Part shown: positions 21,653-43,680 of the stretch, piece after piece | How the letters are laid out: the number at the start of each line of letters is the position of its first letter | Numbering within the stretch: the stretch's first letter is position 1 | NCBI GenBank assembly: GCA_040756735.1 | Contig: JBFLYC010000020.1 | Location: 114-64,113 of the forward strand | Length of the DNA: 64,000 nt | Direction: 5' to 3' | Source: Bacillota bacterium | Lineage (GTDB): Bacteria; Bacillota; DSM-16504; Desulfitibacterales; Desulfitibacteraceae | Position numbers and translations under genes: made by a program | Notes under the pieces: generated by a model | What the model was told of the DNA's origin: nothing | What the model saw: the letters and a program-made list of their open reading frames with translations, nothing else | Database searches by the model: none

Positions 21653-21872
21653 GAGCTCAGAAAAAGCTTCAGGGATAGTGCAATATTTCCATCATGTTTA
21701 ATATCAATAACCCAGAATAGCAGTATTACCCATACTAATGATAATAAAAGATCTACCCAAGAGGGAGGTCTTTTTTGTTTTAAAAAATTCCAAATTATAT
21801 ATTTTTTAGGAAGGATTAATGCAATTTTTGAAGAATAAAAACATTAAATATTTGAGCAAACATTACAACTCA

Positions 21873-21886
21873 TGAACAAATGTTCA
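21873..21886. promoter_or_regulatory. TGAACA-N2-TGTTCA operator-like box (copy 1)
   Basis: TGAACAAATGTTCA. The 16-mer ATGAACAAATGTTCAA (21872-21887) is identical to 25844-25859. It ends 84 nt upstream of the 5'-nucleotidase ATG. Confidence 0.55.
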
Positions 21887-21970
21887 AAAACTTATAGCAA
21901 CCTTAACTTTTCTATAACCTAAAATTTACCAAGACAGTTTAGTATTAAAAATGAGATTGGAGGGTATCTA

Positions 21971-23788
21971 ATGAAAACAGTTAAAAAACTAGGATGTCTG
22001 CTCATGGTGATAGCGCTAATTATTGGTATTTTTGTGCCAATAAGCGGTTTCGCTGCCACCGAAACTACTACTATTGTTAATAATATAACAATGGTAAAAG
22101 AGAATTCGACAGAAGCAACTCAGTTGAATCAAGTTGATATTGTCACATTTAATGACTTCCATGGCAGCTTGGCAGAAGATCCCAGAGAAGGTAGAAATGC
22201 TGGTATGGCTAAGCTTGTAACTGCAGCTAGAGAAGCTTATGCAGCAAACCCTAATACCATAATTGTAGCTGGCGGAGATAACTACCAGGGTAGTGCATTA
22301 TCAAACTTGACCTATGGTGCACCTGTTTCAGCAATGATGAAGGCTATGGGAGTAACTGCTTCAGCTGTTGGAAACCATGAATTTGATTGGGGAGTTCACT
22401 TGATCGAACAGTGGGCTAGGGATGGTGGCTTTGAGTTCTTAGCTGCCAATATATATGACAAAGCCACTGGTGAACCGGTAACCTGGGCTAAACCTTATCT
22501 AATTATTGAAAAGGGTGGTATCAAGGTTGCTTTTATTGGGCTTGCCCATCCTGATACTGCTGTTTTGACAAAGAGGGAGTACGTTGAAGGAGTAGAGTTT
22601 ACTGATCCTGTTGAAGAAACAATAAAATGGGTTGAATATCTAAAAGATGGAAATGCACAAGCAGGAATACCCGATGTTATTATTGCTTTAACTCATATAG
22701 ATTCAGATCAGAACAGGGATACTAAAGAGATTACCGGTAATGTTGTTAAGCTGGCAAATAATGTTCCCGGATTAGATGCCATTGTATCCGGACATAGTCA
22801 TAGAAGTGTTGCCGGAACTGTAAATGGTGTAGCAATTGTGCAGGCAGGTGCCTATGGAAGAATGTTTGGCAAATTATCAATTATGTTAAATGAAGAAGGT
22901 AAAGTAATAGAAATTATACCTTCTCTTGATGATATATCCATGAGAAAAAGTGATATGATACCCAATCCAGAGGCTGCAGAACAATTTGAAACATTTAATG
23001 AAGAACTAAAGCCCATTCTCGAGGAACAACTGGGTACAGCAACTGCAGATTTTACCCATGACAGAACTCAGCCAAATGTATCATTGTTAGGCAAATGGGC
23101 TGCAGAAGTAATGAAAAAGAAAACAGGCGTCCAAGTGGCTATTCAAAATGGTGGCGGTTTAAGACGCACAATGGCTGAAGGCAAGATCACCATGGGTGAC
23201 TTATATGAGATAATGCCCTTTGATAATGGTCTGGTGACAATGGAACTCTCAGGTGCAGACCTTAAAAAAGCAATTGACCACGGTATCATGAATCCAAATG
23301 TTACAGATGGTCAATTTGCAGGGCTTATAGTTGTATTCGATGCAGAAGCGGAATTTGGCAATCGAATTGTTTCAATAACATTGGAAGACGGCACACCATT
23401 AGTAATGGATCAATACTATACGGTAGTTGTACCAGACTTTATTTTCACTGGTGGAGACAACTATGACTTCACGAATGCTAAAAATGTTGTAGAAACATAT
23501 ATTCCTGTAAGGGATATGTTGGTGGAAGCAGTAAAGGAAGCAAAAATATTAACTCCGGAACCGGTAACATACATAATTGAGAAATCTCAAGTTGCTGAAG
23601 TTGTTCAAGCGGTTATTGAAGAAGTTAAAGAGCCAGAAGTAATCATTTATGTAGTAAAAAGTGGTGATGTTCTTTCAAGAATTGCCAAAATGTTTAATAC
23701 CACTTATCAAAAACTGGCAGAATACAATGGAATTAAGAATCCACACTTGATTTTCCCAGGACAAAAAATTGAAATTCCTGTCCATTAA
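21971..23788 (+). CDS. secreted 5'-nucleotidase/metallophosphoesterase with C-terminal LysM cell-wall anchor
   Basis: Signal peptide MKTVKKLGCLLMVIALIIGIFVPISGFA. Metallophosphatase motifs VTFNDFHG, GGDNYQGS, GNHEFDWG, SGHSH. 5'-nucleotidase C-domain (IQNGGGLR, FTGGDNYDF). LysM YVVKSGDVLSRIAKMFNTTYQKLAEYNGIKNPHLIFPGQKIEIP. Confidence 0.9.
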   Translation: MKTVKKLGCLLMVIALIIGIFVPISGFAATETTTIVNNITMVKENSTEATQLNQVDIVTFNDFHGSLAEDPREGRNAGMAKLVTAAREAYAANPNTIIVAGGDNYQGSALSNLTYGAPVSAMMKAMGVTASAVGNHEFDWGVHLIEQWARDGGFEFLAANIYDKATGEPVTWAKPYLIIEKGGIKVAFIGLAHPDTAVLTKREYVEGVEFTDPVEETIKWVEYLKDGNAQAGIPDVIIALTHIDSDQNRDTKEITGNVVKLANNVPGLDAIVSGHSHRSVAGTVNGVAIVQAGAYGRMFGKLSIMLNEEGKVIEIIPSLDDISMRKSDMIPNPEAAEQFETFNEELKPILEEQLGTATADFTHDRTQPNVSLLGKWAAEVMKKKTGVQVAIQNGGGLRRTMAEGKITMGDLYEIMPFDNGLVTMELSGADLKKAIDHGIMNPNVTDGQFAGLIVVFDAEAEFGNRIVSITLEDGTPLVMDQYYTVVVPDFIFTGGDNYDFTNAKNVVETYIPVRDMLVEAVKEAKILTPEPVTYIIEKSQVAEVVQAVIEEVKEPEVIIYVVKSGDVLSRIAKMFNTTYQKLAEYNGIKNPHLIFPGQKIEIPVH

Positions 23789-23806
23789 AGAAACTGATAT
23801 ATATTT

Positions 23807-23844
23807 GCTAAAACGCTTTGTTCCTTGGAACAAAGCGTTTTAGC
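23807..23844 (+). terminator. terminator hairpin after the 5'-nucleotidase gene
   Basis: Perfect 18-bp arms GCTAAAACGCTTTGTTCC (23807-23824) and GGAACAAAGCGTTTTAGC (23827-23844). Confidence 0.6.
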
Positions 23845-23884
23845 TAGTCCATATTAATAATATACAGAAAATGAGGCGTGTCAG

Positions 23885-24342
23885 GTGAAACTCAATAAAT
23901 TGTTAATATCTGTAGTTCTAATTTCAATATTAATAAATAGTCTGTTTGCCTACCAGGCATATGGAGGAGACAAGACCTATAAAGAAGAGTTAACAGAATA
24001 CTATGAAAAGAAGATGGAAAAGCCTTTCTTTTTACTTATAGCTTTAGGCGGCTTAAAGGGAGCAAAAACAATCATCACCTTAGGCATTACTGGAATGATA
24101 ATCATTTTTGTATATATTCCCTATTAGGTGCCATCGGAGGAGTTTTTGTTGCAGGATTAATTGCTGGAGGGGCGATACATCTGATGCTTTTGTTTACAGC
24201 CTTTAAAATGACACCCAGAGAGATAGTTAATTTAGATTTGATAGCATCTGAAATAATTAGGGCTATGGCCGGAAGTATAGGCCTAATAAGCGCGATTCCG
24301 TTAACTGCATTTATTGGGGCCACCATGGGCAAAAAAAGGTAA
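23885..24342 (+). pseudogene. YibE/F-family membrane protein remnant (internal deletion plus frameshift)
   Basis: The first frame (23885-24127) matches the N-terminal TM region of the intact paralogue at 33602 (FFLLIALGGLKGAKTIITLGITGMIIIFVYIP vs GRIKGLKSIFSLIFTGIMIIFFLIPW). After the stop, another frame reads GAIGGVFVAGLIAGGAIHLM...IASEIIRAMAGSIGLISAIPLTAFIGATMGKKR*, the YibE/F C-terminal signature. Confidence 0.7.
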
Positions 24343-24537
24343 TTTTTGGCCCGGGAGATGTTCTGCTATTTCATAATAGCGGCAACCTGGTCCACTCTTC
24401 CGGTGGCAGTCGCCTTAACACGGTGGCGGCACTACCCAAAAATCACTGTATTGCAATAACCTCTTTGAGGGAGGCTGTTGTTATTTAGCCATGAACATTT
24501 ATAATTATAGGTATTATAAAATTAAAGGAGCTATTTA

Positions 24538-25338
24538 ATGAATGACATATTAATTGCAGTGATATTAGGCATAGTAGAAGGCTTAACTGAATTTATACCG
24601 GTTTCATCAACTGGTCACTTGATTATTGTAAGTAAGTTTGTAGAATTTGAAGGTCAATTTGCTACTACATTCAATGTTGTCATTCAAGTAGGAGCCATAC
24701 TCTCTGTAATAATTTATTTTCGGCGCAAACTCATTCCCTTTGGCAGGAACAAAACTATCTCGGAAAAGGCTTTGACATGGACCATTTGGAAAAAGACTAT
24801 TGTTGGTGTTCTTCCGGCGTTGTTTTTGGGCGCTTTATTTGGAAGCAAGATTGAGGAACTGCTGTTTAATCCTTTTACGGTATCCATTGCATTAGTTATC
24901 GGCGGAATATTTTTAATAATAATTGAAAAACAAAATAAATCAAATATCATTTCTTCCATTGAGAAATTGGATTATAAGACCGCATTTTTAATTGGAATTG
25001 TACAGTGTCTGGCCATGATACCAGGCACATCCAGATCGGCAGCTACTATAATAGGCGCAATGATTTTTGGATGCTCCCGTGTAGTAGCAGCAGAATTTTC
25101 CTTTTTCCTGGCTATCCCAACAATGATTGCCGCCTCTTCATATTCTTTGTTGAAATCAGGGTTTAGCTTAAATCTTATGCAAATCCAGACATTGTCTGTT
25201 GGATTTATAGTCTCGTTTATTGTAGCTCTATTAGTTATAGCAGGATTCATGAAGTATATTTCTCGAAACAGTTTCAAACCTTTTGGATATTACAGGATAT
25301 TGTTAGGACTGTTAGTAATTATATATTTTGCATTTTAG
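24538..25338 (+). CDS. uppP: undecaprenyl-diphosphate phosphatase
   Basis: 266-aa polytopic ORF. BacA/UppP motifs EGLTEFIPVSSTGHL and PGTSRSAATI. Confidence 0.93.
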   Translation: MNDILIAVILGIVEGLTEFIPVSSTGHLIIVSKFVEFEGQFATTFNVVIQVGAILSVIIYFRRKLIPFGRNKTISEKALTWTIWKKTIVGVLPALFLGALFGSKIEELLFNPFTVSIALVIGGIFLIIIEKQNKSNIISSIEKLDYKTAFLIGIVQCLAMIPGTSRSAATIIGAMIFGCSRVVAAEFSFFLAIPTMIAASSYSLLKSGFSLNLMQIQTLSVGFIVSFIVALLVIAGFMKYISRNSFKPFGYYRILLGLLVIIYFAF

Positions 25339-25424
25339 AATGTCATTAATGCCCTTCACAAATAAACTCTGCATCCTCCATTGTGTATTCTATTCCATGG
25401 GGGATTTTTATTTAAGGATAATAG

Positions 25425-25465
25425 CCCTTTGCACCTCATAGGACATGCAAAGGGTTTTGATTTTC
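25425..25465 (+). terminator. rho-independent terminator after uppP
   Basis: CCCTTTGCA (25425-25433) and TGCAAAGGG (25446-25454), followed by TTTTGATTTT. Confidence 0.75.
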
Positions 25466-25844
25466 TTAAAATACTCAGGGCAATATTTTTTGCATACATG
25501 GCGCTGGCAACTTTTATGAGGTTTATGATTTGTTATCTCATCCAAAAGGTAGCAGCCATCAGCAATAGCAGCCTGGAAATTGAACATTACAAAAATTAAT
25601 ATTGGTTTAATATGCCTTTTACCCTATATTTACTTTTTTATAACATGATATAGACAAAAAATTAACAGGGAGGACATATTAGGCATTGACGTAGCATGGG
25701 AGTGGCACACCTGTGAAAATAAGATGGCCGAAAGAATGAGTGTCTAGCTCCTGATGAGGGGTAAAATTTTAAAATTTTATGTTTTCCAAGCAGGATAAAT
25801 CCAAATTTTGTAGAATTAATATTGCGAACAAAAGTTATATACAA

Positions 25845-25858
25845 TGAACAAATGTTCA
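25845..25858. promoter_or_regulatory. TGAACA-N2-TGTTCA operator-like box (copy 2)
   Basis: TGAACAAATGTTCA within the identical 16-mer ATGAACAAATGTTCAA (25844-25859). A GAACAAA half-site lies ~20 nt upstream (25825-25831). It is ~200 nt upstream of the giant gene. Confidence 0.55.
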
Positions 25859-26055
25859 ATAAATGCATTTGCAGCGTTACAAAATAGATGATAGCAAGCT
25901 AAACCTTCAGTCAAGTGTGTTGCTTTATTAACGGTAAACAAAAATTTAATTTTAAAGAGAGGTGAAGAGAGTACACGTTTAATAACCGGGTGTAGTTAAA
26001 AAGGTTAAGTTAGATTGTTATTATTCTAACTAAAGGAAAAAAGGGAGGAAAGATT

Positions 26056-29000
26056 ATGCAAGGTAAAATACATAAAGGATTAAGTGTTTTATTGATACTT
26101 ACAATGCTTTTTAGTAGTCTATTTACTTTTTCTGACATTGGATTTATGTATGCAGAGGAAACACCACAATGGTTTGTTGAAACCTTTGATAATTGTGGAA
26201 ATACTGGAACAAGCTATACCACTGGGCACTTTGAAGGTAATTATGGAATCAGATGGGACTATATTGCTGCAAGAGGTAATTTAGATAATTATTCTATTGA
26301 TGGAAAAGGCTTAATGATTAGAAATGCATCTGAAAATGGTAAAATCTATGCTGAGTCTATTCCAGGGGGTATAGGAAGTTTTTCTGTTGACTTAAAGAAG
26401 GCCTTTACAGGTACAGCAGAACGTACAGTGCAGTTATTAATCAATGATATAATTGTGGATACATTCACCCTTGCACAATATGATCCTGAGACATTCCCTG
26501 TTCAGCAATTTGTAGTAACAGATATTAATGTTAGCGGTGATTTTAAATTAGAATTAAGGCACACGAATCCTTTAAGTGCACAAATTACCATCGATAACAT
26601 TAGATGGACCAGCTACACTGGTAACGGTGAAACACCACCACCAAACCTTACTCTCACCCATAACCCGGTAACAACTGCATGGGCAGGAGACGATATTAAC
26701 ATAGACTTTTCAGTAAATAATGCTATAGGTACCGTGACAGGTCATGTATACTATAAACCTGTAAGTGATAACGATTTTACTCCTATTAGCACAACCTCCA
26801 GTGCCATAATACCTGGTGATGAAGTAACAGAAAATATTGAATATTATATAGTAGTTGAGGACCAGGATGAAAGGGTGGCAAGAAGCCCGGAAACAGGGTT
26901 TCATGTTATTTCTGTCATGGAAAAACCAGAGCTGATAACCATAGCAGAAGCCAGATCCCTATCAGCTTCAACTGAAGTTAGAGTGGAGGGTATCATTACA
27001 GCTATCTTAGGCAGTGGACAAAATGTATATATTCAGGACGAGACTGCCGGCATAGTGATTAGATTAGGCTCTGCAGCCTTAAGCACAGGCTTGAGTGAAG
27101 GCGACAAAATCCAGGCAATTGGAACAATTGGAAGTTACGCCGGACTTGTTCAAGTAAATGTTGCCAATAAAATTGATTTAAAAACCGTAGAAGAAGGTGT
27201 AGGTGTACCTGAGGCAAAGCTTGTGACGATAGATGAAATCACCTCTAACCTGCAAGGACAGCTGTTAAAGGTAGAAGGTTTAGAGGTTGTTTCAATCGGC
27301 GCCCAAACACCTAATTATAATGTTGTTGCTAAAGATTCAGCAGAAAATCAAATCTTTTTAAGGGTTGAGAATACTGTTGACAAAACATTTTTCAATGTAG
27401 GTCAAGAACTTACTGTCACTGCTCCATTGGGTCAGTATAATGCTGATTTTCAATTAATGATCCGCAGAGCATCAGACTTAGAAGAGCTTGTTGATGAGTC
27501 AAAAGCAGCTCCGGTAACAGCCACACCGGAAGCTGGAGCAGTTGATGCAGGTACAGCAGTTACTTTATCGACAGTTACAGAAGGAGCAACAATTTACTAT
27601 ACAATAGGCGAGGGCGAGCCTCAGACTGAATATACTGAACCTATTATAATAAATATAGCAACAATAATTAAGGCTAAGGCAGTAAAGGAAGGTTTGGAAG
27701 ATAGTGAAATCCGCACCTTTGTTTACACAGTAAAGCAAGAGGGAGTATTATCTATTCTGGACGTTAAAAAGCTTCCAGTGAATACTGAGGCAGAAGTACA
27801 AGGTGTTGTAACGTTAGTTACCCACACAAATGAAGCTTATATTCAAGATGAATTGGCAGGATTGCAGGTTTTTATTTCTAATATCAAGAATAAAGTAAAA
27901 CCTGGTGATCTAATCAAGGCTAGAGGAAAAGTTTCACAATATAACGGTGAGTTGCAAATTGTTCCAAACTCATTAGATGACATAGATATACTAAGCAGTG
28001 ATAATCCTGTACCTGAGCCCTTAGAAGTAACCCTGCAGCAGCTTGTTCAAACACAGGGCCGTGTTACTGTAAGTCAAGCTCTGGATAATTACGCAGGAAA
28101 CGAAAAAACAATTACAGTAAGGGGTGTAATTACAGACGTCTTGCCAAATGGTGTATATGCTATGCAAATTGCAGATCCTACTGATCCAACAAAGGTATTA
28201 TCAGTTGCCTTACCTGCAGAATATAGAGAGAAATTTAATCCGGGCAATAATCCTGATGCAGTTGGCAGAATGGTGCTGGTAACAGGACAGGAGAAAGACT
28301 ATTATGGCAAGCCGGCAATAAGAAGAGTAGATAAATATGATCCCAATACTGGTATAACAACATATGGCAAATATCATGTTGGCTTTGATATTGAAGGTAT
28401 GAGGGTAACCACTGAGCCTTTTAAGGTTATTGCAAAAGACAATAATGGATTTACAGCTCGACAAGGGGATGTTGAAGTATATATATTCACGTTAAGGGCA
28501 TCAAACTATAATCATGTTGAAACAAAAATTGGTGACTGGTATTCCGCCACGGGAATTGCCGCTTACTACAATAGACCCCAGCTTAAGCTGGTAGATGGCA
28601 CGGATTTAAAATTCGAAGTTCCTCCTGGACAACAGGATCCTAGAGAACCTTTGGTCTTGGATATTAAACCAGGCAATTTTGTCTCTACATACGATAGAAG
28701 ACCATTGATTTCAGCAAGACTGGAAAAAACTGAAGCAGACATTGATTATGAAAATGTTAGATTGCTACTTAATGGAGAGAGTAAAGAATACACATTGGAT
28801 ATTGAAACAGGGATCATCACTTATCAGATTACTGAAGACCTGGACTATGGTGAGCATGATGTAGCAATTGTTGTTCCAGATGTAGAGGAAAGGGTGAAAA
28901 TATTTAACTGGTTCTTTAGAGTTGAAAAGGAAAATCCAACCTATAACTTCTACTATGGTATTCCCCACTCCCATACCGGGTACTCAGATGGCGCTGGGAC

Positions 29001-32000
29001 TCCGACAGCGGCCTTCAACCATGCCAAGAATAATAAATTGGACTTTCTATTTATCACTGATCACTCTAACTGGCTGGATGGTGTAGAAGAAGGGGGCGGC
29101 TATGGTTTTGAATATGAAGCAGCTGCCAATGAATACGTAGAAAAATTTAATCCGTTTACTGATGAGCCTTCCGAATGGATGAAGACAAGATTAGAGGCAG
29201 AAGCATTTAATCGAGAAAACCTTGGCACTTTTCTAGGGGTAAGGGGCTTTGAAATGACCTCCAGTACATGGGGGCACATGAATACAACTAATAGTGATAC
29301 CTATGTTGAAGCTAAAAAACAAATAGTATCCATTAGCCAATATTATGATTGGATTGTGGATGTGTCCAGCAGACCTGGGGCTAATGTATATAATGCATTC
29401 AACCACCCCAATTGGCCGGATGATTCTTTTAATAACCTGGCTTATGTACCAAAACTGGATAGATATATTAATGGAATTGAAGTTGCCAATGGAGCGCCGC
29501 CATATAGCTATTCCAGAGCTGAAGGGCACTATTGGAGATCCCTGGATAATGGATGGAGATTAGGGGCACTAAATGCTCAAGATAACCATGCGAAAAACTG
29601 GGGAGATCCGGATACATTAACAGTGGTTTTAGCAGAGGCCTTGGATGTAGATTCCCTTATCAACGCAATGAATGCAAGAAGATCCTACTCAACTGAAACA
29701 AGAACCCTGCAGCTGACTTTTAAAGGCAACGGTTATTGGATGGGTAGTGTTCTAGATGTTGAGATAGGTGAAAAAATAAACCTTGAGATCCTTGCTGAGG
29801 ATTCAAAGGTACCTATTGAGAAGCTTCAATTGATCACAAATGGTGGGTATATATTAGAAGAAAAAGTAGTTGGCGGGGCAAACAGTGCAGCATGGAACCT
29901 GGCAGTGGAAGCAACTGGAGGAGCCCAATGGTTTGTGGTAAAAGTAATCCACAGTAACGGGGCATGGGGTCATTCATCACCAATATTTACCACTGCCGGT
30001 GAAAATGATATAAAGCTTACAGCCATTAACGTTGACCCTAATCCCACTTTGCCGGGCTTTGAAACAAATATTGAAGCTACTGTAAGTAACATGGGGGTTA
30101 GAGGTATAGAAGGAATTCAGGTGAAATTCTATGCCAACACTATAAATGAAAACAACTTGATAGATACAGTAGACCTGGAAGGCAGACTCAATCCAGGCGC
30201 CAGCGCTGTATTAAGCGCAAAATGGCTGCCTGAAGGATACGGTGAGCAGCGGGTATTTGCAGTATTAACAGATATAGAAGGAGTAACCACTGTCACAGAG
30301 ATATCCATGAATGTAAAGGTTGTTAAACCAATAGGCAAAAAGATACTGTTTGATGGGGCTCATAACAATGCAGATGTACCGGGTACAGTTGTTAAAATAA
30401 TTGAAATGTTAAGATTGTACGGATATGAAGCTACAATAAACACACAAAAATTTACGCCAGAGCTTCTAGAAAGTGTAGATATTTTAATTATCAATATTCC
30501 ATTGAATGCAGCCAATAAATTTACAACTAATGAAGAAGATGCTATAGCTGATTGGGTTAAAGCAGGTGGTTCCATCATGCTGGCAGCCAAGTCCAATTTT
30601 AATCAGGATAGCACATTATTGAACAGTCTCATGGAAAAGCTGGGAAGTAGCATCCGCTTCAATGACGATAATATATACGAACCGGAAGATTCTGGCAAAT
30701 ATACGGGTGGAATGGTTTGGTCCATAGTAATGGATAATCTGCCACCAACTGAAAGTGGATTAAATGCCAACATGGAGGCCATACGAATATTCAGTGGATG
30801 TTCTTTGATAAATGCAGAGGGTGGGCCACTAGTAAATGATCCGGCAACAGAGCTGGAAATACTGCTATTGGCAAACGATACTTCATATACGGCTAACCCA
30901 GGACCTAATGCATATATTTACAATTTGATAGGAGAATTAAATGGCGGCACAATTCCTGTTATTGCCAAAGAGAAGGTTGGAAATGGTAGAATAATTGCAG
31001 CCGGAAGACACTTCTATTCAGATTTTGAAATAGGAAATAATGTTTCAAACACTGCATTGACTTTACAGGCAATTGACTGGCTGGCAGGATACGATAGAAT
31101 ACGGTCAATTGCTGATATCAGGGCTAATGCAAATGTGGGAGATGTTGTAACTGTTAGAGGTACTATCACAGCACCTACCAATCATTTTTTTGATGTAGTA
31201 TACATTCAGGATGAAACTTCAGGGGTAGCAGTATATGGTTCGCAAACGAAGGATAACCTGCCCCTGGGAACAGAAATTATAGCTACCGGTAAGGTAACGT
31301 ACTTCGAAGGAGAACTGGAATTAGCTTATGAGAACTATGATTACGAAGTAATTTATGTAGGTCCGGTAGAAAAGATAGAACCCTTGAAGGTATCCACCAA
31401 AGATGCCATGTCACCAGAGGTTGCGGGAATGCTTATAACCACTCAAGGAGTAATAACTGATTACGACCCGGTTGACGGTAACTTCAGAATTAATGATGGA
31501 AGCGGCAGTGCTTTCGTTCAAATTGATGGTTATCTAAACCTTGGAATTGAAAGATTTAAAATAGGAGATAATGTGTCAGTAACCGGTGTGGCATCCCACG
31601 GTTCCGTTGGTCCTAGAATCAGGGTGAGATATCCATCTGATTTGAAAGCTGTACAGCAAGAACCACCGGAGAAAGTAGAGATTAAAAGCGTAGAAGCAAC
31701 CAATGGACAAATAACAATAACATTGAATACAGCACCGGCAGAAGCACCAGATGAAAAAGACTTTACGGCAACAATAAGCATAAATGATGGAGAGGCAAAA
31801 GAATTAAAGCTAGAACATTTCTACTACGACGAAGATGTAACCGTAACCTTCACCTTTACTCCGGTAGCTGCAACAGAAGAAGAACAAAGAGTGATAGTTG
31901 CAGTAGCCTATGGTGATGGAACACCATGGGCTGCACAACCCTATACCATTGAAGCAGGGGACAGATCACAGTTCAATATAACTACTATTAGTAAACCTTC

Positions 32001-33507
32001 TGTAAATACACCATTTAGAATAAGCATCAGAGAAGCAATGGATACCCATGGAAACCTTCTTGATGGTAAGGTAAATGTAATAATTAAACATAATGAAGAA
32101 ACCTTGGTAAATGATATTGTAACATTTAACTTAGGCAGTGGAGTAATACCAGTAACTATATCTACTAAAGGGGAGCATCGGCTAGAGGTATTTATTGATG
32201 GAATCACTGCTCCAAAATCAGTAAGTGTATTAGTTGTCCCAATGGTTGAAATACAATTAGCTGAGGAAGATTATGATAAAGAGGGAAGGGTTACTGTTGA
32301 ATTAGGGGATATAGTGGAAGACACCAATGTAGAAATCATGTATGCCTTTGGTGAAGGTGAGACTAGAGTAGAATTGTCTATTGTAATTACTGTACCTACT
32401 GGAAGTGGTTTGCTTAGTATTTCTAACGTCGTATTAACCAATAATAGTCTAGTAATGAATCTGTCGGTGGATGGCTTAAATGAAAGAAAGGTATTCTTGA
32501 AGTTACCCAAGCCAATTGACATTCCTTCAGATCGGGTTGGAGCCTTCCACAGAAAAGGAGATGTTTGGGAATTTAGAATAGCAAATGTTATCGGTGATGA
32601 AGTAGAAGGTTATGAAGTAGAATTTGAAACGGATCTAAGCGCTATAGCATTGGCAGAAATAGTAGACGTACCTGCATCTATAGAAGCATCTGTAAGTAAT
32701 CGTAATAGAGTAACATTAAGCTGGGATGTCGTACATGGAGCAGCTTATGAATTGATTCGTAAAGTAAGTAACTCCGGAGCAGTAAAGATCATTCCAATAG
32801 AGGATACTGAATATGTGGATATAGCAGGATATAATACTACTTACCAGTATCAAGTAAGGGCTGTGAAGGAAGGATATCATTCTGATCTATCCCCCGCAGT
32901 GGAAGTTACTACTGGTTCTGCTCCCAGTAGCAGTAGTAAATCTTCTAAACCTATTGTTGACGAAGAGGAACCAGTTGAAGAAATAAAGGTTCATTTAACA
33001 GATATTGCCGGACATTGGGCTGAGGGATATATTAAGGAATTAGTAGCTTTGGGAGCTATTGATGGCTACAGTGACGGTACCTTTAGGCCAAATAACAATA
33101 TAACAAGGGCAGAATTTGTCAAGATTGTTGTTGGGGCCTTCAATCTTCAGGCTAAAGGCGAAAAAACATTTAAAGATACCGAGGGACATTGGGCCAGGGA
33201 TTATATTGCAACAGCCCATGCCCATGGGATTATTAATGGCTATAATGATAATACCTTTGGGGCAGAAGACTTTATCACCAGAGAGCAAGTGGTTTTAATT
33301 ATTTCCCGTGCAGCAGAATTAACTACTGTAAAATATGAAAAGAGATTTATAGATGATGAAAAAATTTCAAGCTGGGCCAGGGATGCAGTTTATATAGCTG
33401 CGACAAATGGTATAGTAGATGGTTATCTGGACAACACCTTCAGGCCGCAAGGAAATGCAACTAGAGCAGAAGCAGTAAAAATTATTGTTGAATCTCTAAA
33501 AAAATAA
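26056..33507 (+). CDS. 2483-aa S-layer-anchored multidomain surface protein: 4 OB-fold modules + PHP-family (CehA/McbA-like) phosphoesterase + CARDB/FN3/Ig-like spacers + 3 SLH repeats
   Basis: RBS AAGGGAGG and a signal peptide. OB modules: VRVEGIITAILGSGQNVYIQDETAGIVIRL (from nt 26977), AEVQGVVTLVTHTNEAYIQDELAGLQVFI (27790), ITVRGVITDVLPNGVYAMQIADP (~28120), VTVRGTITAPTNHFFDVVYIQDETSGVAVYG (31147). PHP motifs YYGIPHSHTGYSDG (28951-28992) and DFLFITDHSNW. Hex/chitobiase C-terminal-like GATIYYTIGEG. CARDB-like region ~30007-30330. Three SLH repeats ~32990-33500 (DIAGHWAEGYI.., DTEGHWARDYI.., SSWARDAVYIA..). Confidence 0.85.
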   Translation: MQGKIHKGLSVLLILTMLFSSLFTFSDIGFMYAEETPQWFVETFDNCGNTGTSYTTGHFEGNYGIRWDYIAARGNLDNYSIDGKGLMIRNASENGKIYAESIPGGIGSFSVDLKKAFTGTAERTVQLLINDIIVDTFTLAQYDPETFPVQQFVVTDINVSGDFKLELRHTNPLSAQITIDNIRWTSYTGNGETPPPNLTLTHNPVTTAWAGDDINIDFSVNNAIGTVTGHVYYKPVSDNDFTPISTTSSAIIPGDEVTENIEYYIVVEDQDERVARSPETGFHVISVMEKPELITIAEARSLSASTEVRVEGIITAILGSGQNVYIQDETAGIVIRLGSAALSTGLSEGDKIQAIGTIGSYAGLVQVNVANKIDLKTVEEGVGVPEAKLVTIDEITSNLQGQLLKVEGLEVVSIGAQTPNYNVVAKDSAENQIFLRVENTVDKTFFNVGQELTVTAPLGQYNADFQLMIRRASDLEELVDESKAAPVTATPEAGAVDAGTAVTLSTVTEGATIYYTIGEGEPQTEYTEPIIINIATIIKAKAVKEGLEDSEIRTFVYTVKQEGVLSILDVKKLPVNTEAEVQGVVTLVTHTNEAYIQDELAGLQVFISNIKNKVKPGDLIKARGKVSQYNGELQIVPNSLDDIDILSSDNPVPEPLEVTLQQLVQTQGRVTVSQALDNYAGNEKTITVRGVITDVLPNGVYAMQIADPTDPTKVLSVALPAEYREKFNPGNNPDAVGRMVLVTGQEKDYYGKPAIRRVDKYDPNTGITTYGKYHVGFDIEGMRVTTEPFKVIAKDNNGFTARQGDVEVYIFTLRASNYNHVETKIGDWYSATGIAAYYNRPQLKLVDGTDLKFEVPPGQQDPREPLVLDIKPGNFVSTYDRRPLISARLEKTEADIDYENVRLLLNGESKEYTLDIETGIITYQITEDLDYGEHDVAIVVPDVEERVKIFNWFFRVEKENPTYNFYYGIPHSHTGYSDGAGTPTAAFNHAKNNKLDFLFITDHSNWLDGVEEGGGYGFEYEAAANEYVEKFNPFTDEPSEWMKTRLEAEAFNRENLGTFLGVRGFEMTSSTWGHMNTTNSDTYVEAKKQIVSISQYYDWIVDVSSRPGANVYNAFNHPNWPDDSFNNLAYVPKLDRYINGIEVANGAPPYSYSRAEGHYWRSLDNGWRLGALNAQDNHAKNWGDPDTLTVVLAEALDVDSLINAMNARRSYSTETRTLQLTFKGNGYWMGSVLDVEIGEKINLEILAEDSKVPIEKLQLITNGGYILEEKVVGGANSAAWNLAVEATGGAQWFVVKVIHSNGAWGHSSPIFTTAGENDIKLTAINVDPNPTLPGFETNIEATVSNMGVRGIEGIQVKFYANTINENNLIDTVDLEGRLNPGASAVLSAKWLPEGYGEQRVFAVLTDIEGVTTVTEISMNVKVVKPIGKKILFDGAHNNADVPGTVVKIIEMLRLYGYEATINTQKFTPELLESVDILIINIPLNAANKFTTNEEDAIADWVKAGGSIMLAAKSNFNQDSTLLNSLMEKLGSSIRFNDDNIYEPEDSGKYTGGMVWSIVMDNLPPTESGLNANMEAIRIFSGCSLINAEGGPLVNDPATELEILLLANDTSYTANPGPNAYIYNLIGELNGGTIPVIAKEKVGNGRIIAAGRHFYSDFEIGNNVSNTALTLQAIDWLAGYDRIRSIADIRANANVGDVVTVRGTITAPTNHFFDVVYIQDETSGVAVYGSQTKDNLPLGTEIIATGKVTYFEGELELAYENYDYEVIYVGPVEKIEPLKVSTKDAMSPEVAGMLITTQGVITDYDPVDGNFRINDGSGSAFVQIDGYLNLGIERFKIGDNVSVTGVASHGSVGPRIRVRYPSDLKAVQQEPPEKVEIKSVEATNGQITITLNTAPAEAPDEKDFTATISINDGEAKELKLEHFYYDEDVTVTFTFTPVAATEEEQRVIVAVAYGDGTPWAAQPYTIEAGDRSQFNITTISKPSVNTPFRISIREAMDTHGNLLDGKVNVIIKHNEETLVNDIVTFNLGSGVIPVTISTKGEHRLEVFIDGITAPKSVSVLVVPMVEIQLAEEDYDKEGRVTVELGDIVEDTNVEIMYAFGEGETRVELSIVITVPTGSGLLSISNVVLTNNSLVMNLSVDGLNERKVFLKLPKPIDIPSDRVGAFHRKGDVWEFRIANVIGDEVEGYEVEFETDLSAIALAEIVDVPASIEASVSNRNRVTLSWDVVHGAAYELIRKVSNSGAVKIIPIEDTEYVDIAGYNTTYQYQVRAVKEGYHSDLSPAVEVTTGSAPSSSSKSSKPIVDEEEPVEEIKVHLTDIAGHWAEGYIKELVALGAIDGYSDGTFRPNNNITRAEFVKIVVGAFNLQAKGEKTFKDTEGHWARDYIATAHAHGIINGYNDNTFGAEDFITREQVVLIISRAAELTTVKYEKRFIDDEKISSWARDAVYIAATNGIVDGYLDNTFRPQGNATRAEAVKIIVESLKK

Positions 33508-33535
33508 AGTAATATAAATATAAAACAAGATAAAT

Positions 33536-33567
33536 GAAAGCTCTTCAGTATTGATTGGAGAGCTTTC
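33536..33567 (+). terminator. hairpin after the giant gene
   Basis: GAAAGCTCT (33536-33544) and AGAGCTTTC (33559-33567). The T-run is displaced (AAACTGTTCTTTTT). Confidence 0.5.
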
Positions 33568-33601
33568 AAACTGTTCTTTTTAAACAACGTGGAGGGTAAA
33601 T

Positions 33602-34768
33602 ATGAAAAACAAGGCAAATATAATAATAACTACCAGTATAGTTCTTGTTACCATAATTATTATTTATTCTTCAGGTATACTATTTAGAGGAATAGACCTG
33701 AGAAGAAAGGATCTTAACTTTGAAAAAGCACTAGTATTAAAGGTCTTCTCAGAGACTCTAAATAAAGATAGAACAATACCAAATATGTATCTTGGGCATC
33801 AAGATATCCAAGTGAAAATACTAACCGGAGAGTTTAAAGGGGAGATACATACTCTAAAAAATTCGTTAGGAAGAACATATAATGTTCATACAAGAGAAAA
33901 TATGGAAATTGTAGTCAGCATATATAGCCATGATGGTGTTATAGAAAGCATCATGGTTTATAGTCATTCAAGAAGTAAAACAATATATTTTCTTGTTGGC
34001 CTTTTCTTTATAGTATTACTTGCTGTCGGCAGGATTAAAGGTTTAAAATCCATCTTTTCTTTAATCTTCACAGGAATTATGATTATTTTCTTTTTAATAC
34101 CCTGGATTTTGAAGGGTTATAACCCAATTTTAATTGCCATTATTACTGCTTCCTTATCTACAATTGTAACCTTTTATATGGCAACCGGATGGAGCAAAAA
34201 GACACTGGCTGCTTCTACAGGAACGGTTCTAGGAGTTACTATCGCAGGAAGTATTTCTTACTGGGCAGGTAGAATTGCACAATTATCTGGGATGACAATG
34301 GATAAGGCAGAACAGCTAATTTACATAGCTGATGATACGGGTATGCAGGTTGGAGGACTTATGTTTGCAGCAATATTGATAGCTTCTTTAGGCGCAATCA
34401 TGGATGTGGCCATGTCAATTACTTCATCTGTATTTGAGATTCATGGTGTTAAAAAGAACCTCTCCAGGAAGGCCCTGTTTAAATCCGCAATGAATGTAGG
34501 ACAAGATATTATAGGCACCATGACTAATACCTTGATTTTAGCATTTACCGGAGGTTTACTAAATATGCTAATCATTGTTATGGCATATAGGATGCCCTAT
34601 GTACAATTTATAAATCTTGATCTTTTCGCTATAGAATTTATTCAGGGGTTAGCAGGTAGTATAGGAATTGTTTTAACTGTCCCATTAACAGCCTTAGCTG
34701 CTTCCTGGCTGGCAAAGGAGTTTATCATAAAAAACAATAAGCCTGGTAAAGTAAAGGCGACAAGGTAA
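33602..34768 (+). CDS. YibE/F family membrane protein (intact copy)
   Basis: 388 aa. N-terminal TM, a ~100-aa extracytoplasmic segment, then a polytopic core ending in FIQGLAGSIGIVLTVPLTALAASWL. Confidence 0.8.
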   Translation: MKNKANIIITTSIVLVTIIIIYSSGILFRGIDLRRKDLNFEKALVLKVFSETLNKDRTIPNMYLGHQDIQVKILTGEFKGEIHTLKNSLGRTYNVHTRENMEIVVSIYSHDGVIESIMVYSHSRSKTIYFLVGLFFIVLLAVGRIKGLKSIFSLIFTGIMIIFFLIPWILKGYNPILIAIITASLSTIVTFYMATGWSKKTLAASTGTVLGVTIAGSISYWAGRIAQLSGMTMDKAEQLIYIADDTGMQVGGLMFAAILIASLGAIMDVAMSITSSVFEIHGVKKNLSRKALFKSAMNVGQDIIGTMTNTLILAFTGGLLNMLIIVMAYRMPYVQFINLDLFAIEFIQGLAGSIGIVLTVPLTALAASWLAKEFIIKNNKPGKVKATR

Positions 34769-34777
34769 CAGGAAGGG

Positions 34778-35197
34778 ATGATTCTTATTATGGAAAAAAT
34801 CAAGAGAAAATTAGATGAATTAGAGGAATATACAGAGATTCTTTCAATGGTTTCCACCTATAGCAAGGAAGATTTCATGAATAATCCAATATACTATGGT
34901 GGTGCTGAACGATTTATTCTTCTGGGATATCATAATATTTTAGAGGCAAGCAAACTGATATGTGAGCATTGCCGTTTTTCGAATATACACAGTAAAGATA
35001 TTATAAAATCCCTTGAAATAAATAAAGTAATCCCACCGTGGCTTGTTAGTAACATAAATAAAAGAAAAAAATATATATTTACCTTAAAATATGATTATCT
35101 AAGACTTATGAACAAAGAAGAATTATACTTTCTTTTGAAGGACATAATAAGTGATTTTAGACACTTCAAAAAATATGTACTTGAATACATTATTTAA
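34778..35197 (+). CDS. DUF86/HepT-like (HEPN-fold) protein with degenerate active-site motif, no MNT partner
   Basis: 139 aa, AT-rich. The layout resembles YutE-type DUF86 (..LEEYTEIL..EDFMNNPIYYGGAERFILLGYHNILEASKLI..). At the position of the RN..VH.Y motif it reads KRKKYIFTLKYDY. Confidence 0.4.
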   Translation: MILIMEKIKRKLDELEEYTEILSMVSTYSKEDFMNNPIYYGGAERFILLGYHNILEASKLICEHCRFSNIHSKDIIKSLEINKVIPPWLVSNINKRKKYIFTLKYDYLRLMNKEELYFLLKDIISDFRHFKKYVLEYII

Positions 35198-35203
35198 TGA
35201 ATA

Positions 35204-35500
35204 CTACTCTATATCAACAGTCTTCCTATTTTTATGAGAAGTAGGTTTCTGTGATTTTTCTTTATTATTCACAAGAGGATTTTTATAAAGAATACCTGCT
35301 GCTAGAGCCGTGAGGGGAATAGGATAGATGAATCCAATGCTTCCAGACAATATCCTAATGACTTCTATGGAAATAGATTTTACATTCATAATACGAGATA
35401 ATGGTATATTAGAGGCGGTTAAAACCAATAAATGATGCATGGAAGCCCCTGTATAGGCTAGAATCAAAGTGTTTGACATTGTACCCATAATATCCTTTAG
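35204..35500 (-). pseudogene. YibE/F C-terminal fragment (5'-truncated)
   Basis: KDIMGTMSNTLILAYTG...IEVIRILSGSIGFIYPIPLTALAAGIL parallels the last ~85 aa of the intact copy (DIIGTMTNTLILAFTG...IEFIQGLAGSIGIVLTVPLTALAAS). An upstream in-frame stop lies at ~35501. Confidence 0.7.
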
Positions 35501-35603
35501 CTAGTGATTTTTGACATAACCATAATCGAAAAACAGAGAATGTCAATTAGGATTTAATACATTTAGAAAATTCTACATAAAGAGTACTCATGAACTGGTA
35601 ATT

Positions 35604-36410
35604 ATGTCAACTACAGATATTCATGCCCACGTAATGCATTATGATTACATGAAAGACAGCGTCGACGAAGGCATCGGTCTGGCGAAAGTAGCTACTTTGG
35701 TTCAACAGGTCAGGGGGAAATATCCCAATACAATTCTGGTTGATGCGGGCGATGTTATTCAAGGAAGTATTCTCGGTGACTTAGAAGCACTGGTAAAGCC
35801 CATACAAAAAGGTGATTTGCATGCAGTTATCGGGTCAATGAACATGATGGGTTATGATGCCGTCTGTGTGGGCAACCATGAGTTTAATTACGGGTTAGAT
35901 TTTTTAAAAAGGGCATATGAGGGAGCGCAGTTTCCCCTGGTAAATGCTAATGTTTACCAGGCAGGAACTGAGGACAACTATTTTACCCCTTATGTAATAC
36001 TGGAGCGGGAAGTAGATGGAAATTCCATTAAAATAGGGATTATTGGCTTTGTTCCACCACAAATTATGATCTGGGATAAAATCCGCATAGAGGGAAGGGT
36101 GTATACCAAGGGAATAGTTGAGACTGCAAAAAAATTTATTCCGGAGATGAAAGCTGAAGGAGCAACCTAATTATTAATAACTTTGTGGGCGAGACAGTAG
36201 CCAGGTTAAACACCTTTTTTGCCAGGGTAATGGAAAACAAAGTAGTACAGCTTATTAATTTTGTATTCCAATATTCTAGAGGTTGTTAAAGTAAATGCGA
36301 AAGAACTGAAAAGTTGGCTGGAAGTCTCGGCAGCTAACTTCAGCCAGATTGACCCAACAGCAATGAGGGGAAGCTGTTCTGATCAGAGGCTTCCTCATTT
36401 TTTATGGTGA
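35604..36410 (+). pseudogene. 2',3'-cyclic-nucleotide phosphodiesterase/3'(5')-nucleotidase (CpdB/YfkN-like) remnant
   Basis: The N-terminal metallophosphatase part lacks a signal peptide (STTDIHAHVMHYDY, DAGDVIQGS, GNHEFNYGLDFL) and stops at 36170. Further homologous pieces lie in other frames (NNFVGETVARLNTFFARVMENKVVQLI; VNAKELKSWLEVSAANFSQIDP...*36410). The catalytic C-domain is missing. Confidence 0.7.
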
Positions 36411-36498
36411 CTGACAGTAATTGAGAAAAAAAATTGTTAATCAAGGAGGAATTTTAAATAAAACGACGAATATGTATATGAACAAAATACCAAGATGT

Positions 36499-36512
36499 TG
36501 GACATTTGTTCA
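36499..36512. promoter_or_regulatory. TGAACA-N2-TGTTCA operator-like box (copy 3, inverted, 1 mismatch)
   Basis: TGGACATTTGTTCA is the reverse complement of TGAACAAATGTCCA. It also pairs with TGAACAAAAT at 36479-36488. It ends 32 nt upstream of the punA ATG. Confidence 0.5.
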
Positions 36513-36544
36513 TGCTTTGTATTTAATGCAAAAGGAGGGATTAG

Positions 36545-37363
36545 ATGGCGTTGGCAGATTTGTTGAATGAAACTGTAGGCTATTTAAGACAAAATACCGT
36601 TGAAAAGCCGGAAATCGGCCTTGTTTTGGGCTCGGGTCTTGGCATACTGGCCGAAAAGATTACTAAAAAGCAAGCAGTATCATATGCCGAAATTCCCAAT
36701 TTCCCGGTATCAACTGTAGAGGGGCATCAGGGACAGTTGGTTTTCGGTACTATAAGCAATAAAAGTGTAGTTGCCATGCAGGGCAGATTTCACTTTTACG
36801 AAGGTTATAGTTTAGCTCAGGTGACTTATCCTATACGTGTGATGAAGCTGCTGGGGGTAAAAACATTAATTGTTACCAATGCTGCCGGTGGTATTAATCT
36901 TAATTTTAAGCCAGGTGACTTGATGTTAATCTCTGATCATATCAATTTGCTCGGCAGCAATCCTTTGATCGGGGAAAATATACCAGAATTAGGGCCCAGG
37001 TTTCCCGATATGTCAGATGCATATGACAAGCAGTTGCGGGAAAAGGTAAAGCAAATAGCTGATGCTGGTAATATTGCCTTGCAGGAAGGTGTTTATGCAG
37101 CAGTGACAGGGCCGAGTTATGAAACGCCTGCGGAAATAAGGTATCTGCGAACTATTGGAGTAGATGCTGTGGGCATGTCAACAGTTCCTGAAGTAATTGT
37201 GGCCAATCATTGTGGAATAAAAGTAATCGGCATTTCCTGCATTACCAATATGGCAGCTGGGGTGTTAGACAAAAAACTCGACCACCAGGAGGTTATGGAA
37301 ACAGCAGCTTTGGTAAAAGAAAAATTTATCACGTTGGTTCAAAATATTATCACCAATTTATAA
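36545..37363 (+). CDS. punA: purine nucleoside phosphorylase (PunA type)
   Basis: 272 aa with RBS AAAGGAGGGA. Motifs LGSGLG, GRFHFYEGY, VTNAAGG, GPSYETPAE, GMSTVPEV. Confidence 0.93.
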   Translation: MALADLLNETVGYLRQNTVEKPEIGLVLGSGLGILAEKITKKQAVSYAEIPNFPVSTVEGHQGQLVFGTISNKSVVAMQGRFHFYEGYSLAQVTYPIRVMKLLGVKTLIVTNAAGGINLNFKPGDLMLISDHINLLGSNPLIGENIPELGPRFPDMSDAYDKQLREKVKQIADAGNIALQEGVYAAVTGPSYETPAEIRYLRTIGVDAVGMSTVPEVIVANHCGIKVIGISCITNMAAGVLDKKLDHQEVMETAALVKEKFITLVQNIITNL

Positions 37364-37495
37364 CATTTTTTATATTTATTAGGCAGGAATTTTTGCTTCC
37401 CATGAAGAATTAAAAGTTAGACGAACAAATAATCCTATTTCTGAACAAAATTTCATTTCAACGATTTAGTGATCGGTTGACAAAGGAGATGTCGA

Positions 37496-38167
37496 ATGCA
37501 AACTAAAGATATTGCTCAATATATTGATCATACCTTACTAAAACCGGAGGTGACCAGGAGGCAGATTATCAAACTTTGTGAGGAAGCCCAGGAGTATGGA
37601 TTTGCTTCAGTATGCGTCAACCCTTGTAATATAAATACTGCGTACCAGCAATTAAAGGGCAGTGGAGTTAAGATATGTACTGTCATCGGCTTTCCCCTGG
37701 GAGCTACTATTACAGCAGTAAAAGCATTTGAGACAAGAGAAGCGATTGCAGCCGGAGCTGAGGAGATAGACATGGTTATCAATATCGGTGCGCTGAAGGA
37801 CAGGAATGAGGTGTATGTTCACAATGATATTGAAGCAGTAGTCAAGGCGGCCCAGGGTAAGATTGTTAAAGTTATTATAGAAACGGGCCTGTTAACAGAT
37901 GACGAAAAGGTGCTGGCCTGCCAATTGGCCATGAGAGCCGGCGCTCATTTTGTTAAAACATCTACCGGATTTAACGCCAAAGGAGCAACGGAAGAAGACG
38001 TTCGGCTGATAAGAGATGTAGTTGGCTCCGAAATAGGTGTTAAAGCATCAGGAGGGGTCAGGTCCCTGAATGAGTTATTGGCTATGCTGGAAGCTGGAGC
38101 TACCAGAATCGGCACCAGCTCGGGGGTAGCCATTATCAATGGGAATGGAATAGAAGCTGCATATTAA
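37496..38167 (+). CDS. deoC: deoxyribose-phosphate aldolase
   Basis: 223 aa. [33 protein letters not shown] (Schiff-base Lys), VKASGGVR. Confidence 0.94.
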
Positions 38168-38329
38168 CTGGAACAACATATTTATTAAATCAACATATTT
38201 TTTTGGGCAGGAGGTGAAAAGTAACTCAAACTGCTGGCAAATATTTTGGAGAACTTCAACAATAGTTTTAGCAAAAAATGGGTGAATAAGGTAGTGGTTT
38301 TAGGTGTGGAGGATAAAGGGGTTGAAATA

Positions 38330-38728: not shown

Positions 38729-38872
38729 CCCCACCCGGACTCAGAAAACACAGTCTTGACATTCTTTCACGTCGATTTCTGGGGTGTTAATTATGATGGT
38801 TCGAGTAAAGCCTTGTGCCATCACTCTCGGCCTTTGCCGAGATGCTATTTAAATATGAGGAGGAATTGGATT

Positions 38873-39964: not shown

Positions 39965-40067
39965 CAGGGATTAATTACACTAAAAGAAAGGGACGGTTAA
40001 TCCGCCCCTTTCTTTTAGTTGCTTTGCTTTGTTATTTTAATTTTCAAAAGACTAGGGAGAGGACCTA

Positions 40068-42645: not shown

Positions 42646-42646
42646 C

Positions 42647-43594: not shown

Positions 43595-43664
43595 GTATTG
43601 AAATTAATTGATTAGATCTGCATTGCTGTTAAAGAATACCCATTACAAACTGTCATCAAATACA

Positions 43665-43672
43665 TGTATAAT
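43665..43672 (+). promoter_or_regulatory. extended -10 promoter element (TGTATAAT) for the pdp leader
   Basis: A perfect TGnTATAAT with TACAAA 17 nt upstream (43644-43649). The predicted transcript would start just before the heptamer palindrome. Confidence 0.45.
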
Positions 43673-43680
43673 ACTAAAAG

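Follow-up and report, generated by a model that had tools for sequence, protein, structure and literature searches.

The DNA analyzed here is a 64-kb stretch (hereafter the window) of the genome of an uncultured Alkaliphilus-related Firmicute. It carries four transcription units whose products fit one nucleic-acid-to-nucleoside pathway: the gene for a secreted LysM 5'-nucleotidase, the gene for a giant SLH/PHP/OB-fold protein of 2483 aa, punA, and deoC-cdd-ABC importer(-pdp-deoR). The gene at the end of this cluster, deoR, encodes a SorC-family regulator. Each of the four units is preceded by a 16-bp palindromic box, ATGAACAAATGTTCAA or a variant of it (Table 1). On the evidence of sequence comparison, we consider it likely that this box is the operator through which DeoR acts on all four units.

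ATGAACAAATGTTCAA is present twice in the window as an exact 16-mer, upstream of the nucleotidase gene (box 1) and of the giant SLH gene (box 2), and the box upstream of punA is its reverse complement with one mismatch. These three copies were noticed in an original prediction made on this DNA, and they held up statistically. A scan for the 16-mer at up to three mismatches returned five matches where 1.44 were expected, and none of 100 shuffles gave five. (The box, half-site and matrix scans reported here covered the 64-kb window.) The distances to the start codons also agreed, with 83 nt between box and ATG for the nucleotidase, 196 nt for the giant SLH gene and 31 nt for punA. Upstream of deoC, two half-sites had been predicted; both are present, but the region in fact holds a complete 14-bp box, TGAACAAAATTTCA, at 37442-37455. 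This sequence is the core of the B. subtilis DeoR operator, which is thus matched at 14 of 14 positions at deoC and with two mismatches at 21873, 25845 and 36479. The 8.3 kb of intergenic DNA contain four matches to the core at up to two mismatches where 0.38 would be expected, and only one in 1,000 simulations reaches four.

Boxes of the B. subtilis type, TTGAAC-N4-(G/T)TTCAA, are found at the four units, with the core matched at 14/14 positions at deoC and at 12/14 at the nucleotidase and SLH genes, and their scores range from 15.8 to 20.2 bits. The matrix behind these scores was built from ten sites that all lie outside the window, namely the sites of relatives described below and two B. 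subtilis half-operators. With this independent matrix, the four main boxes rank first, second, third and fifth among all positions in the window, and three sites score at least 17 bits where 0.04 were expected.

The four sites share more than the palindrome. At each of them a sigma-H-type promoter is followed by an auxiliary GA(A/G)CAAA half-site and then by the palindrome, and in all four cases the start of the auxiliary half-site and that of the half-site within the palindrome are exactly 20 bp apart. The auxiliary site spans 16 bp, begins 10-19 nt after the GAAT of the promoter and is conserved only in its left half, GA[A/G]CAAA; the full palindrome of the module has the consensus TGAACAAA[T/A][G/T]TTCA. 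The original prediction had proposed a palindrome-plus-half-site architecture as in B. subtilis, and the second half-operator is indeed present at four of four sites. Its GAACAAA half-sites were located correctly at 36480, 37423 and 37443, but the one accompanying box 2 lies at 25826-25832, one base away from the proposed 25825-25831.

Could the copies simply be a dispersed repeat, or a recently duplicated promoter segment without regulatory meaning? The flanks of boxes 1 and 2 had been called unrelated. This is right in that there is no duplicated segment, with ungapped identity of 0.25-0.37 against 0.30 by chance, but the half-site 20 bp upstream and the sigma-H-like promoter are shared in register. 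The upstream flanks accordingly give a local alignment score of 29, which is unexpectedly high and would speak for a repeat. Its source, however, is the common AGGA(A/T)T ... GAAT pattern: the likeness consists of the sigma-H -35/-10 elements and the half-site, at slightly different spacings, identity elsewhere stays at the chance level, and the downstream flanks do not align. We regard a repeat as very unlikely.

The promoter pattern AGGAWWW-N11-12-RNNGAATWW, which we take to be the sigma-H consensus of B. subtilis and which was checked against the C. difficile promoter table alone, has exactly four matches on the two strands of the window, and every operator has one of them in front of it. 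By chance 0.26 matches would be expected, and none of 100 shuffles gives four. The window promoters have the -35 (AGGAWWW) and -10 (RNNGAATWW) elements of C. difficile and B. subtilis SigH promoters, with near-identical -10 regions (PMC7438776). They also have the same AGGA-to-GAAT offset, which is 21-22 nt in C. difficile SigH promoters with mapped transcription start sites (TSS), by our own count from the printed sequences (PMC7438776). The mapped C. difficile cwp27 promoter ends in TGTAGAATTA, exactly as does the SLH promoter of the window. We infer that the four promoters depend on sigma-H; transcription from promoters of this kind would start about 7-10 nt past GAAT. With their own starts 10-19 nt beyond GAAT, the operators should extend over about +1 to +40. 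A scan for generic sigma-70 promoters stayed at shuffle level; it gave a weak TTAATA-18-TACAAT candidate overlapping box 2, which was dropped for the sigma-H-type match.

Table 1. Positions of the proposed operators, their promoters and the genes behind them, and of related promoter patterns in other genomes
Feature	Unit	Position	Strand	Remarks
Sigma-H-type promoter AGGATTA-N11-GAAGAATAA	LysM 5'-nucleotidase	21812..21838	+	Consensus-pattern match; geometry as in TSS-mapped C. difficile SigH promoters (PMC7438776)
Auxiliary half-operator TTGAGCAAACATTACA	LysM 5'-nucleotidase	21852..21867	+	GAGCAAA 20 bp before the GAACAAA of the main box; direct-repeat match with 1 mismatch
Main DeoR-type palindrome ATGAACAAATGTTCAA	LysM 5'-nucleotidase	21872..21887	+	20.0 bits, independent DeoR matrix
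LysM 5'-nucleotidase / cyclic-nucleotide phosphodiesterase-family protein, secreted (predicted target)	LysM 5'-nucleotidase	21971..23788	+	NF006934 4.5e-182; C-terminal LysM; hydrophobic N-terminus
Sigma-H-type promoter AGGATAA-N11-GTAGAATTA	Giant SLH gene	25792..25818	+	Consensus-pattern match
Auxiliary half-operator GCGAACAAAAGTTATA	Giant SLH gene	25824..25839	+	Exact GAACAAA-N13-GAACAAA; 11.3 bits
Main DeoR-type palindrome ATGAACAAATGTTCAA	Giant SLH gene	25844..25859	+	20.0 bits, independent DeoR matrix
Giant SLH protein, 2483 aa (predicted target)	Giant SLH gene	26056..33507	+	DUF5689, OB-fold, DUF6359, PHP/CehA-McbA metallohydrolase, three C-terminal SLH domains; signal-peptide-like N-terminus
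Sigma-H-type promoter AGGAATT-N11-GACGAATAT	punA	36447..36473	+	Consensus-pattern match
Auxiliary half-operator ATGAACAAAATACCAA	punA	36478..36493	+	2 mismatches to the B. subtilis core; 12.2 bits
Main box, reads ATGAACAAATGTCCAA on the - strand	punA	36498..36513	-	15/16 identical to boxes 1 and 2; 15.8 bits
punA, purine-nucleoside phosphorylase	punA	36545..37363	+	NF006054 3.8e-124
Sigma-H-type promoter AGGAATT-N12-GAAGAATTA	deoC	37385..37412	+	Consensus-pattern match
Auxiliary half-operator ACGAACAAATAATCCT	deoC	37421..37436	+	Exact GAACAAA-N13-GAACAAA repeat
Main box CTGAACAAAATTTCAT	deoC	37441..37456	+	14-bp core identical to the B. subtilis DeoR OL core; 20.2 bits, top score of the window
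deoC, cdd, Bmp/PnrA-type nucleoside ABC importer (binding protein, ATPase, two permeases), pdp	deoC	37496..45191	+	
deoR, SorC-family deoxyribonucleoside regulator; proposed binder of the four operators		45223..46191	+	NF053881, PF04198, 8r7y alignment
Sigma-H-type patterns without a DeoR box	Nucleotidase orthologues of Maledivibacter halophilus, Brassicibacter mesophilus and one metagenome-assembled genome (MAG)	L006 9833, L007 9920, L008 (34 nt before the estimated start)		
Sigma-H-type pattern without a DeoR box	Proteiniborus homologue of the giant protein	L005 9800		

The regulator itself points to the same assignment. It aligns with B. subtilis DeoR (PDB 8r7y) at 2.7e-74 over residues 7-311 and carries the C-terminal SorC sugar-phosphate-binding domain PF04198, and its closest orthologues are those of Alkaliphilus species. 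The lysine of the VQLKGG motif is conserved in this alignment and is presumably the covalent site for deoxyribose-5-phosphate; in B. subtilis DeoR, the effector is bound covalently. In the N-terminal helix-turn-helix, the recognition helix NISRP(Q/T)VSRLL is likewise kept, including R34 and R39 (LNISRPQVSRLL versus LNISRPTVSRLL), two residues reported to contact bases in B. subtilis DeoR (PMC11229326). The B. subtilis operator, ATTGAACAAAATTTCAATTACCAATTTACATATGTTCAA, consists of a palindrome and a second half-operator, both of which are needed for tetramer binding (PMC11229326). The window sites agree with this dra-nupC-pdp operator (DeoR structures 8r7y, 7bhy and 4oqp) in the half-site TTGAAC / GTTCAA, in the 14-bp core at deoC, and in being bipartite, with a full palindrome and, about two helical turns from it, a second site of which one half is good. 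The two systems also share the recognition helix, the VQLKGG lysine and the linkage to deoC and pdp.

Further support comes from deoR-linked operons in other organisms. DeoR orthologues with 66-70% identity adjoin deoC or pdp operons in MAG GCA_008633095, Alkaliphilus hydrothermalis and A. transvaalensis (loci L087-L089). Upstream of all three operons stand tandem TGAACAAAATTTCA-type boxes (TGAACAA..TTCA), 20-21 bp apart, behind an AGGAWWT-N-GAAT promoter. Unlike in the window, deoR is the first gene in these organisms, and there is one operator for one operon. In a metagenomic locus, L124, TTGAACAAATGCTAAT-N5-TTGAACAAATGTTCAA stands before a deoR-deoC operon whose DeoR is 47% identical; here TTGAACAAATGTTCAA repeats the perfect palindrome of boxes 1 and 2. 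When eight operators from five organisms are aligned, they stay in register: the upstream half-site has an invariant G-A-C-A-A and the palindrome an invariant G-A-C-A...T-T-C. The promoter-operator module as a whole is the same in L088 and L089 and nearly so in L087, and the L124 promoter is sigma-A-like. A metagenome scan for GAACAAA-N13-14-GAACAAANNTTCA returned 120 stretches from diverse organisms, mostly chance matches or unrelated repeats; the informative ones were L124 and a contig, L142, that is taken up below. The proposal that the box is the operator of the local SorC/DeoR-type protein thus gains from the 14/14 core at deoC, from the similarity of the protein to 8r7y and from tandem boxes in four organisms. 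As a separate observation, the deoC leader of MAG GCA_008633095 contains more TTTGTT/TTGTTCAA half-site-like sequences downstream of the tandem operator (L087 11160-11200), which may be a third DeoR site.

What weighs against DeoR control of all four units? Some points concern the regulator and the form of its sites. NF053881, the NCBIfam DeoR family, is by far the best family for the protein, but its 348.6 bits fall below the curated equivalog cut-off of 420. Compared with B. subtilis, the half-operator spacing is 20 bp rather than 22-23 bp (counted from the published sequence), and the order is mirrored, with the half-site first and the palindrome second. Moreover, the window operators would lie downstream of the promoter (about +1 to +40), whereas the B. 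subtilis operator is at -60 to -21. The specificity of the box is judged within 64 kb of the genome only. Other differences are ones of context: the window promoters look sigma-H-type rather than sigma-A-type, deoR is at the end of its operon, and punA, the surface nucleotidase and the giant SLH protein, all predicted targets here, are absent from the B. subtilis operon.

A second set of points concerns conservation of the two new targets. We found no DeoR-type box upstream of 79 nucleotidase orthologues (41-64% identity; 79 genomes) or of the closest one (71%). Nor was one found at the three giant-protein homologues examined, from Alkaliphilus serpentinus, a Logan contig and Proteiniborus, where synteny is not conserved either. 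Linkage to deoR or deoxynucleoside genes is conserved for the punA and deoC sites (L087, L088, L089 and L124) and not for the nucleotidase and SLH sites. Conservation in relatives had been set beforehand as one of the tests that could refute the prediction, and its outcome is divided between the deo sites, which are conserved, and the other two, which are not. Since the boxes are absent from orthologues, this part of the regulon would be lineage-specific, and the membership of the nucleotidase and SLH genes is purely a prediction that draws on evidence within the window. We treat these two targets as lineage-specific predictions rather than as refuted. The original prediction did not anticipate this lack of conservation, and it likewise passed over the shared sigma-H-type promoter and the LexA alternative discussed below.

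The same finding bears on the possibility that the boxes belong to another regulator, or are non-functional sequence kept together with a shared promoter, so that the likeness to DeoR sites at the nucleotidase and SLH genes would be a coincidence. The nucleotidase and SLH sites are conserved in none of the relatives examined, and near-matches at three mismatches are about as common in AT-rich intergenic DNA as expected (21 observed versus 18.5). A coincidence would nevertheless have to produce an exact 16-mer twice and a further copy matching it at 15 of 16 positions, auxiliary half-sites that keep one register at four of four sites, boxes placed directly behind four promoters of one type, and 20-bit matrix scores where 0.04 scores of at least 17 bits are expected. 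We think it unlikely.

The promoters themselves may be older than the operators at these genes. A strict sigma-H-type pattern precedes three of 77 nucleotidase loci, against 0.27 expected; these orthologues are 58-62% identical and have no DeoR box, and the Proteiniborus homologue of the giant protein presents the same picture (Table 1). Sigma-H-type patterns at orthologues that lack the box suggest that the sigma-H promoter came first at the nucleotidase and giant genes and that the DeoR operator was a later, lineage-specific addition.

Might boxes 1 and 2 instead be LexA (SOS) operators? In that case, DNA damage would induce the nucleotidase and the surface nuclease-like protein, and DeoR would keep only the punA and deoC sites. 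The core of both boxes, GAAC-AAAT-GTTC, fits the Gram-positive LexA (Cheo/SOS) box, GAAC-N4-GTTC, perfectly, and it shares its centre with the C. difficile lexA and recA operators, which read GAACAAATGTTT (PMC4234289). In L142, the 14-mer identical to these boxes, TGAACAAATGTTCA, stands between the TTGACA and TACACT hexamers of a gene for an S24 (LexA-like) peptidase. With a LexA matrix derived from eight C. difficile sites that LexA binds stably, the boxes reach 13.9 bits, just under the training range of 14.7-19.2. That score is nevertheless lower than those of all eight training sites, and the DeoR matrix is ahead by 5.3 bits. The LexA core is perfect in boxes 1 and 2 and has one mismatch each at punA and deoC; the punA box matches boxes 1 and 2 at 15 of 16 positions, flanks included, and yet its GAAC core is broken. 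The flanking T before GAAC and A after GTTC follow the DeoR pattern, whereas T is found in one of eight C. difficile LexA sites and A after GTTY in none of eight. The second LexA half is missing from three of the four auxiliary sites.

The surroundings of the boxes argue in the same direction. The nucleotidase and SLH sites have the auxiliary half-site at 20 bp and the sigma-H-type promoter in common with the deoC and punA sites, and the same palindrome precedes the deoR-deoC operon in L124. In flanks, auxiliary half-site, promoter type and gene functions, the window sites follow the deo sites rather than SOS genes: the genes behind boxes 1 and 2 encode a nucleotidase and a surface protein, and DNA-repair genes are not among the targets. 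As with the DeoR-type box, no LexA-type box was found before the nucleotidase orthologues (79 genomes and the 71% orthologue). We also looked for lexA genes in the compared Clostridia loci in order to read the local SOS boxes, and found none. LexA control of boxes 1 and 2 is unlikely on this evidence. In the L142 contig itself (58% G+C), GAACAAATGTGC-N8-TGAACAAATGTTCA at 1394-1427 overlaps the TTGACA/TACACT promoter of the S24 (LexA/UmuD-like) peptidase gene at 1500-2012.

An intermediate reading is that the two perfect palindromes are dual-specificity operators, in which TGAAC/GTTCA, the half-site of DeoR, coincides with GAAC-N4-GTTC, the core recognized by LexA. We consider this improbable, although it would have consequences of its own. 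The surface nuclease-like protein and the nucleotidase would then answer to deoxyribose-5-phosphate, DNA damage and sigma-H, and the cytoplasmic deo genes would be excluded from the DNA-damage arm. Extracellular DNA scavenging would be tied to conditions under which sibling cells lyse, and cross-talk between two unrelated repressor families would be built in. The DeoR and LexA motifs are similar enough for pattern searches to mistake one for the other, which anyone predicting Firmicute regulons automatically should bear in mind.

Three further regulators were judged by pattern only. The box is an AT-rich palindrome with TGAA/TTCA arms, a form that would also suit a CcpA cre site, a Rex box or the PurBox of PurR. 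A cre site reads TGWAANCGNTNWCA with a central CG, and Rex boxes have the spacing GAA-N4-TTC. The centre of the box is AAAT or AAAA, so the original prediction was right that the central CG of cre is absent, and the spacing here is GAA-N6-TTC rather than that of Rex. Two auxiliary sites read CGAACAAA, which resembles the core of what we take to be the PurBox consensus, but an inverted pair of PurBoxes at 16-17 nt is missing. The sequence is fully accounted for by its 14/14 identity to the DeoR operator, and any of these three assignments would be highly improbable.

How might DeoR control of the four units work? By analogy with B. subtilis, a DeoR tetramer would bridge the two sites, with one of its dimers bound to the palindrome and the second to the auxiliary site. 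The bound dimers would cover about +1 to +40 and so block initiation or promoter clearance, and deoxyribose-5-phosphate, a product of deoxynucleoside phosphorolysis, would release the repressor. Expression would then require both the transition or stationary phase, through sigma-H, and deoxyribose-5-phosphate. Under such conditions, extracellular nucleic acid would be cleaved at the cell surface, and the nucleotidase would remove the phosphates. The Bmp-type ABC system would take up the resulting nucleosides, and PunA, Pdp, Cdd and DeoC would break them down into central metabolites.

The nucleoside-scavenging CytR/DeoR regulons of Vibrio and E. coli, in which secreted nucleases and periplasmic nucleotidases supply nucleoside uptake, follow the same logic, from extracellular DNA to nucleotides to nucleosides and on to uptake and catabolism (PMC4723616). 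Their regulators come from unrelated protein families. In V. cholerae, moreover, the nuclease Dns is under HapR and not under a nucleoside repressor (PMC4723616). Here, in contrast, one repressor is predicted to hold every step. If this is correct, a single small-molecule-sensing repressor would run the whole pathway from extracellular DNA to carbon in this organism, from DNA cutting at the S-layer to deoxyribose cleavage, and the pathway would be on only in the transition phase with deoxyribose-5-phosphate present. DeoR regulons could then expand lineage by lineage, by placement of the operator behind pre-existing sigma-H promoters, and the 2483-aa PHP/OB-fold/SLH protein would gain a functional context. 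The advance is a modest one: repressor and operator are known, the predicted targets and the different promoter context are new, and the current understanding of DeoR is not overturned.

What does the giant protein do? In its homologues, the same accessory domains are joined to EEP endonuclease, thermonuclease or 5'-nucleotidase modules, and for this reason a role as a surface nuclease or phosphoesterase is plausible. A PDB sequence search with its PHP region gave no match, a further point against our reading, and "nuclease" is a prediction from domain context. The SLH operator is separated from the start codon by a leader of about 197 nt (25860-26055). An Rfam scan of the window matched nothing, so this leader holds no known riboswitch.

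Box-like sequences are also found elsewhere in the window. The original prediction placed all matches in intergenic DNA, which is true of the four main sites; GAACAAA, however, also occurs in coding DNA, and two more intergenic copies are arms of terminator hairpins (about 16010-16040 and 23810-23840). A DeoR-like 16-mer, TTGAACAGATTTTCAA, lies on the - strand at 47249-47264, inside the glutamate dehydrogenase gene (gdh) and about 1 kb past deoR. It scores 16.7 bits with the DeoR matrix, the fourth-best value in the window, lacks a sigma-H promoter match and may be a chance or an internal site. The box is absent from the intergenic stretches before pdp (43594-43860) and before a cpdB-like open reading frame (35197-35604). 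The first of these, a 266-bp gap between an ABC permease gene and pdp, contains instead an inverted repeat, CAGAATACAG ... CTGTATTCTG, at about 43684-43760, which may act as a terminator, as a processing site or as a further operator. The cpdB-like reading frame (188 aa; 35604-36170) lies immediately before the punA promoter. It corresponds to no more than the N-terminal third of CpdB-type 2',3'-cyclic-nucleotide phosphodiesterase/3'-nucleotidase enzymes and is probably a truncated pseudogene.

DeoR had been called the only regulator of the cluster. This is so for the region from 21.9 to 46.2 kb, but the wider neighbourhood holds a two-component system at 16517-18954, 3 kb upstream of the nucleotidase gene, that consists of a PhoB/WalR-like response regulator and a PhoR/PnpS-like histidine kinase. 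Finally, a gene for a YibE/F-family membrane protein travels with the nucleotidase or giant nuclease-like genes. In the window, an intact copy (33602-34768) follows the giant SLH gene and a degraded remnant (about 23880-24340) follows the nucleotidase gene; a 52-aa PF07907 product is called for this remnant in L086. In relatives, YibE/F adjoins the nucleotidase or the homologue of the giant protein at L085 12023-13207, L004 2605-3774 and L005 8574-9716.

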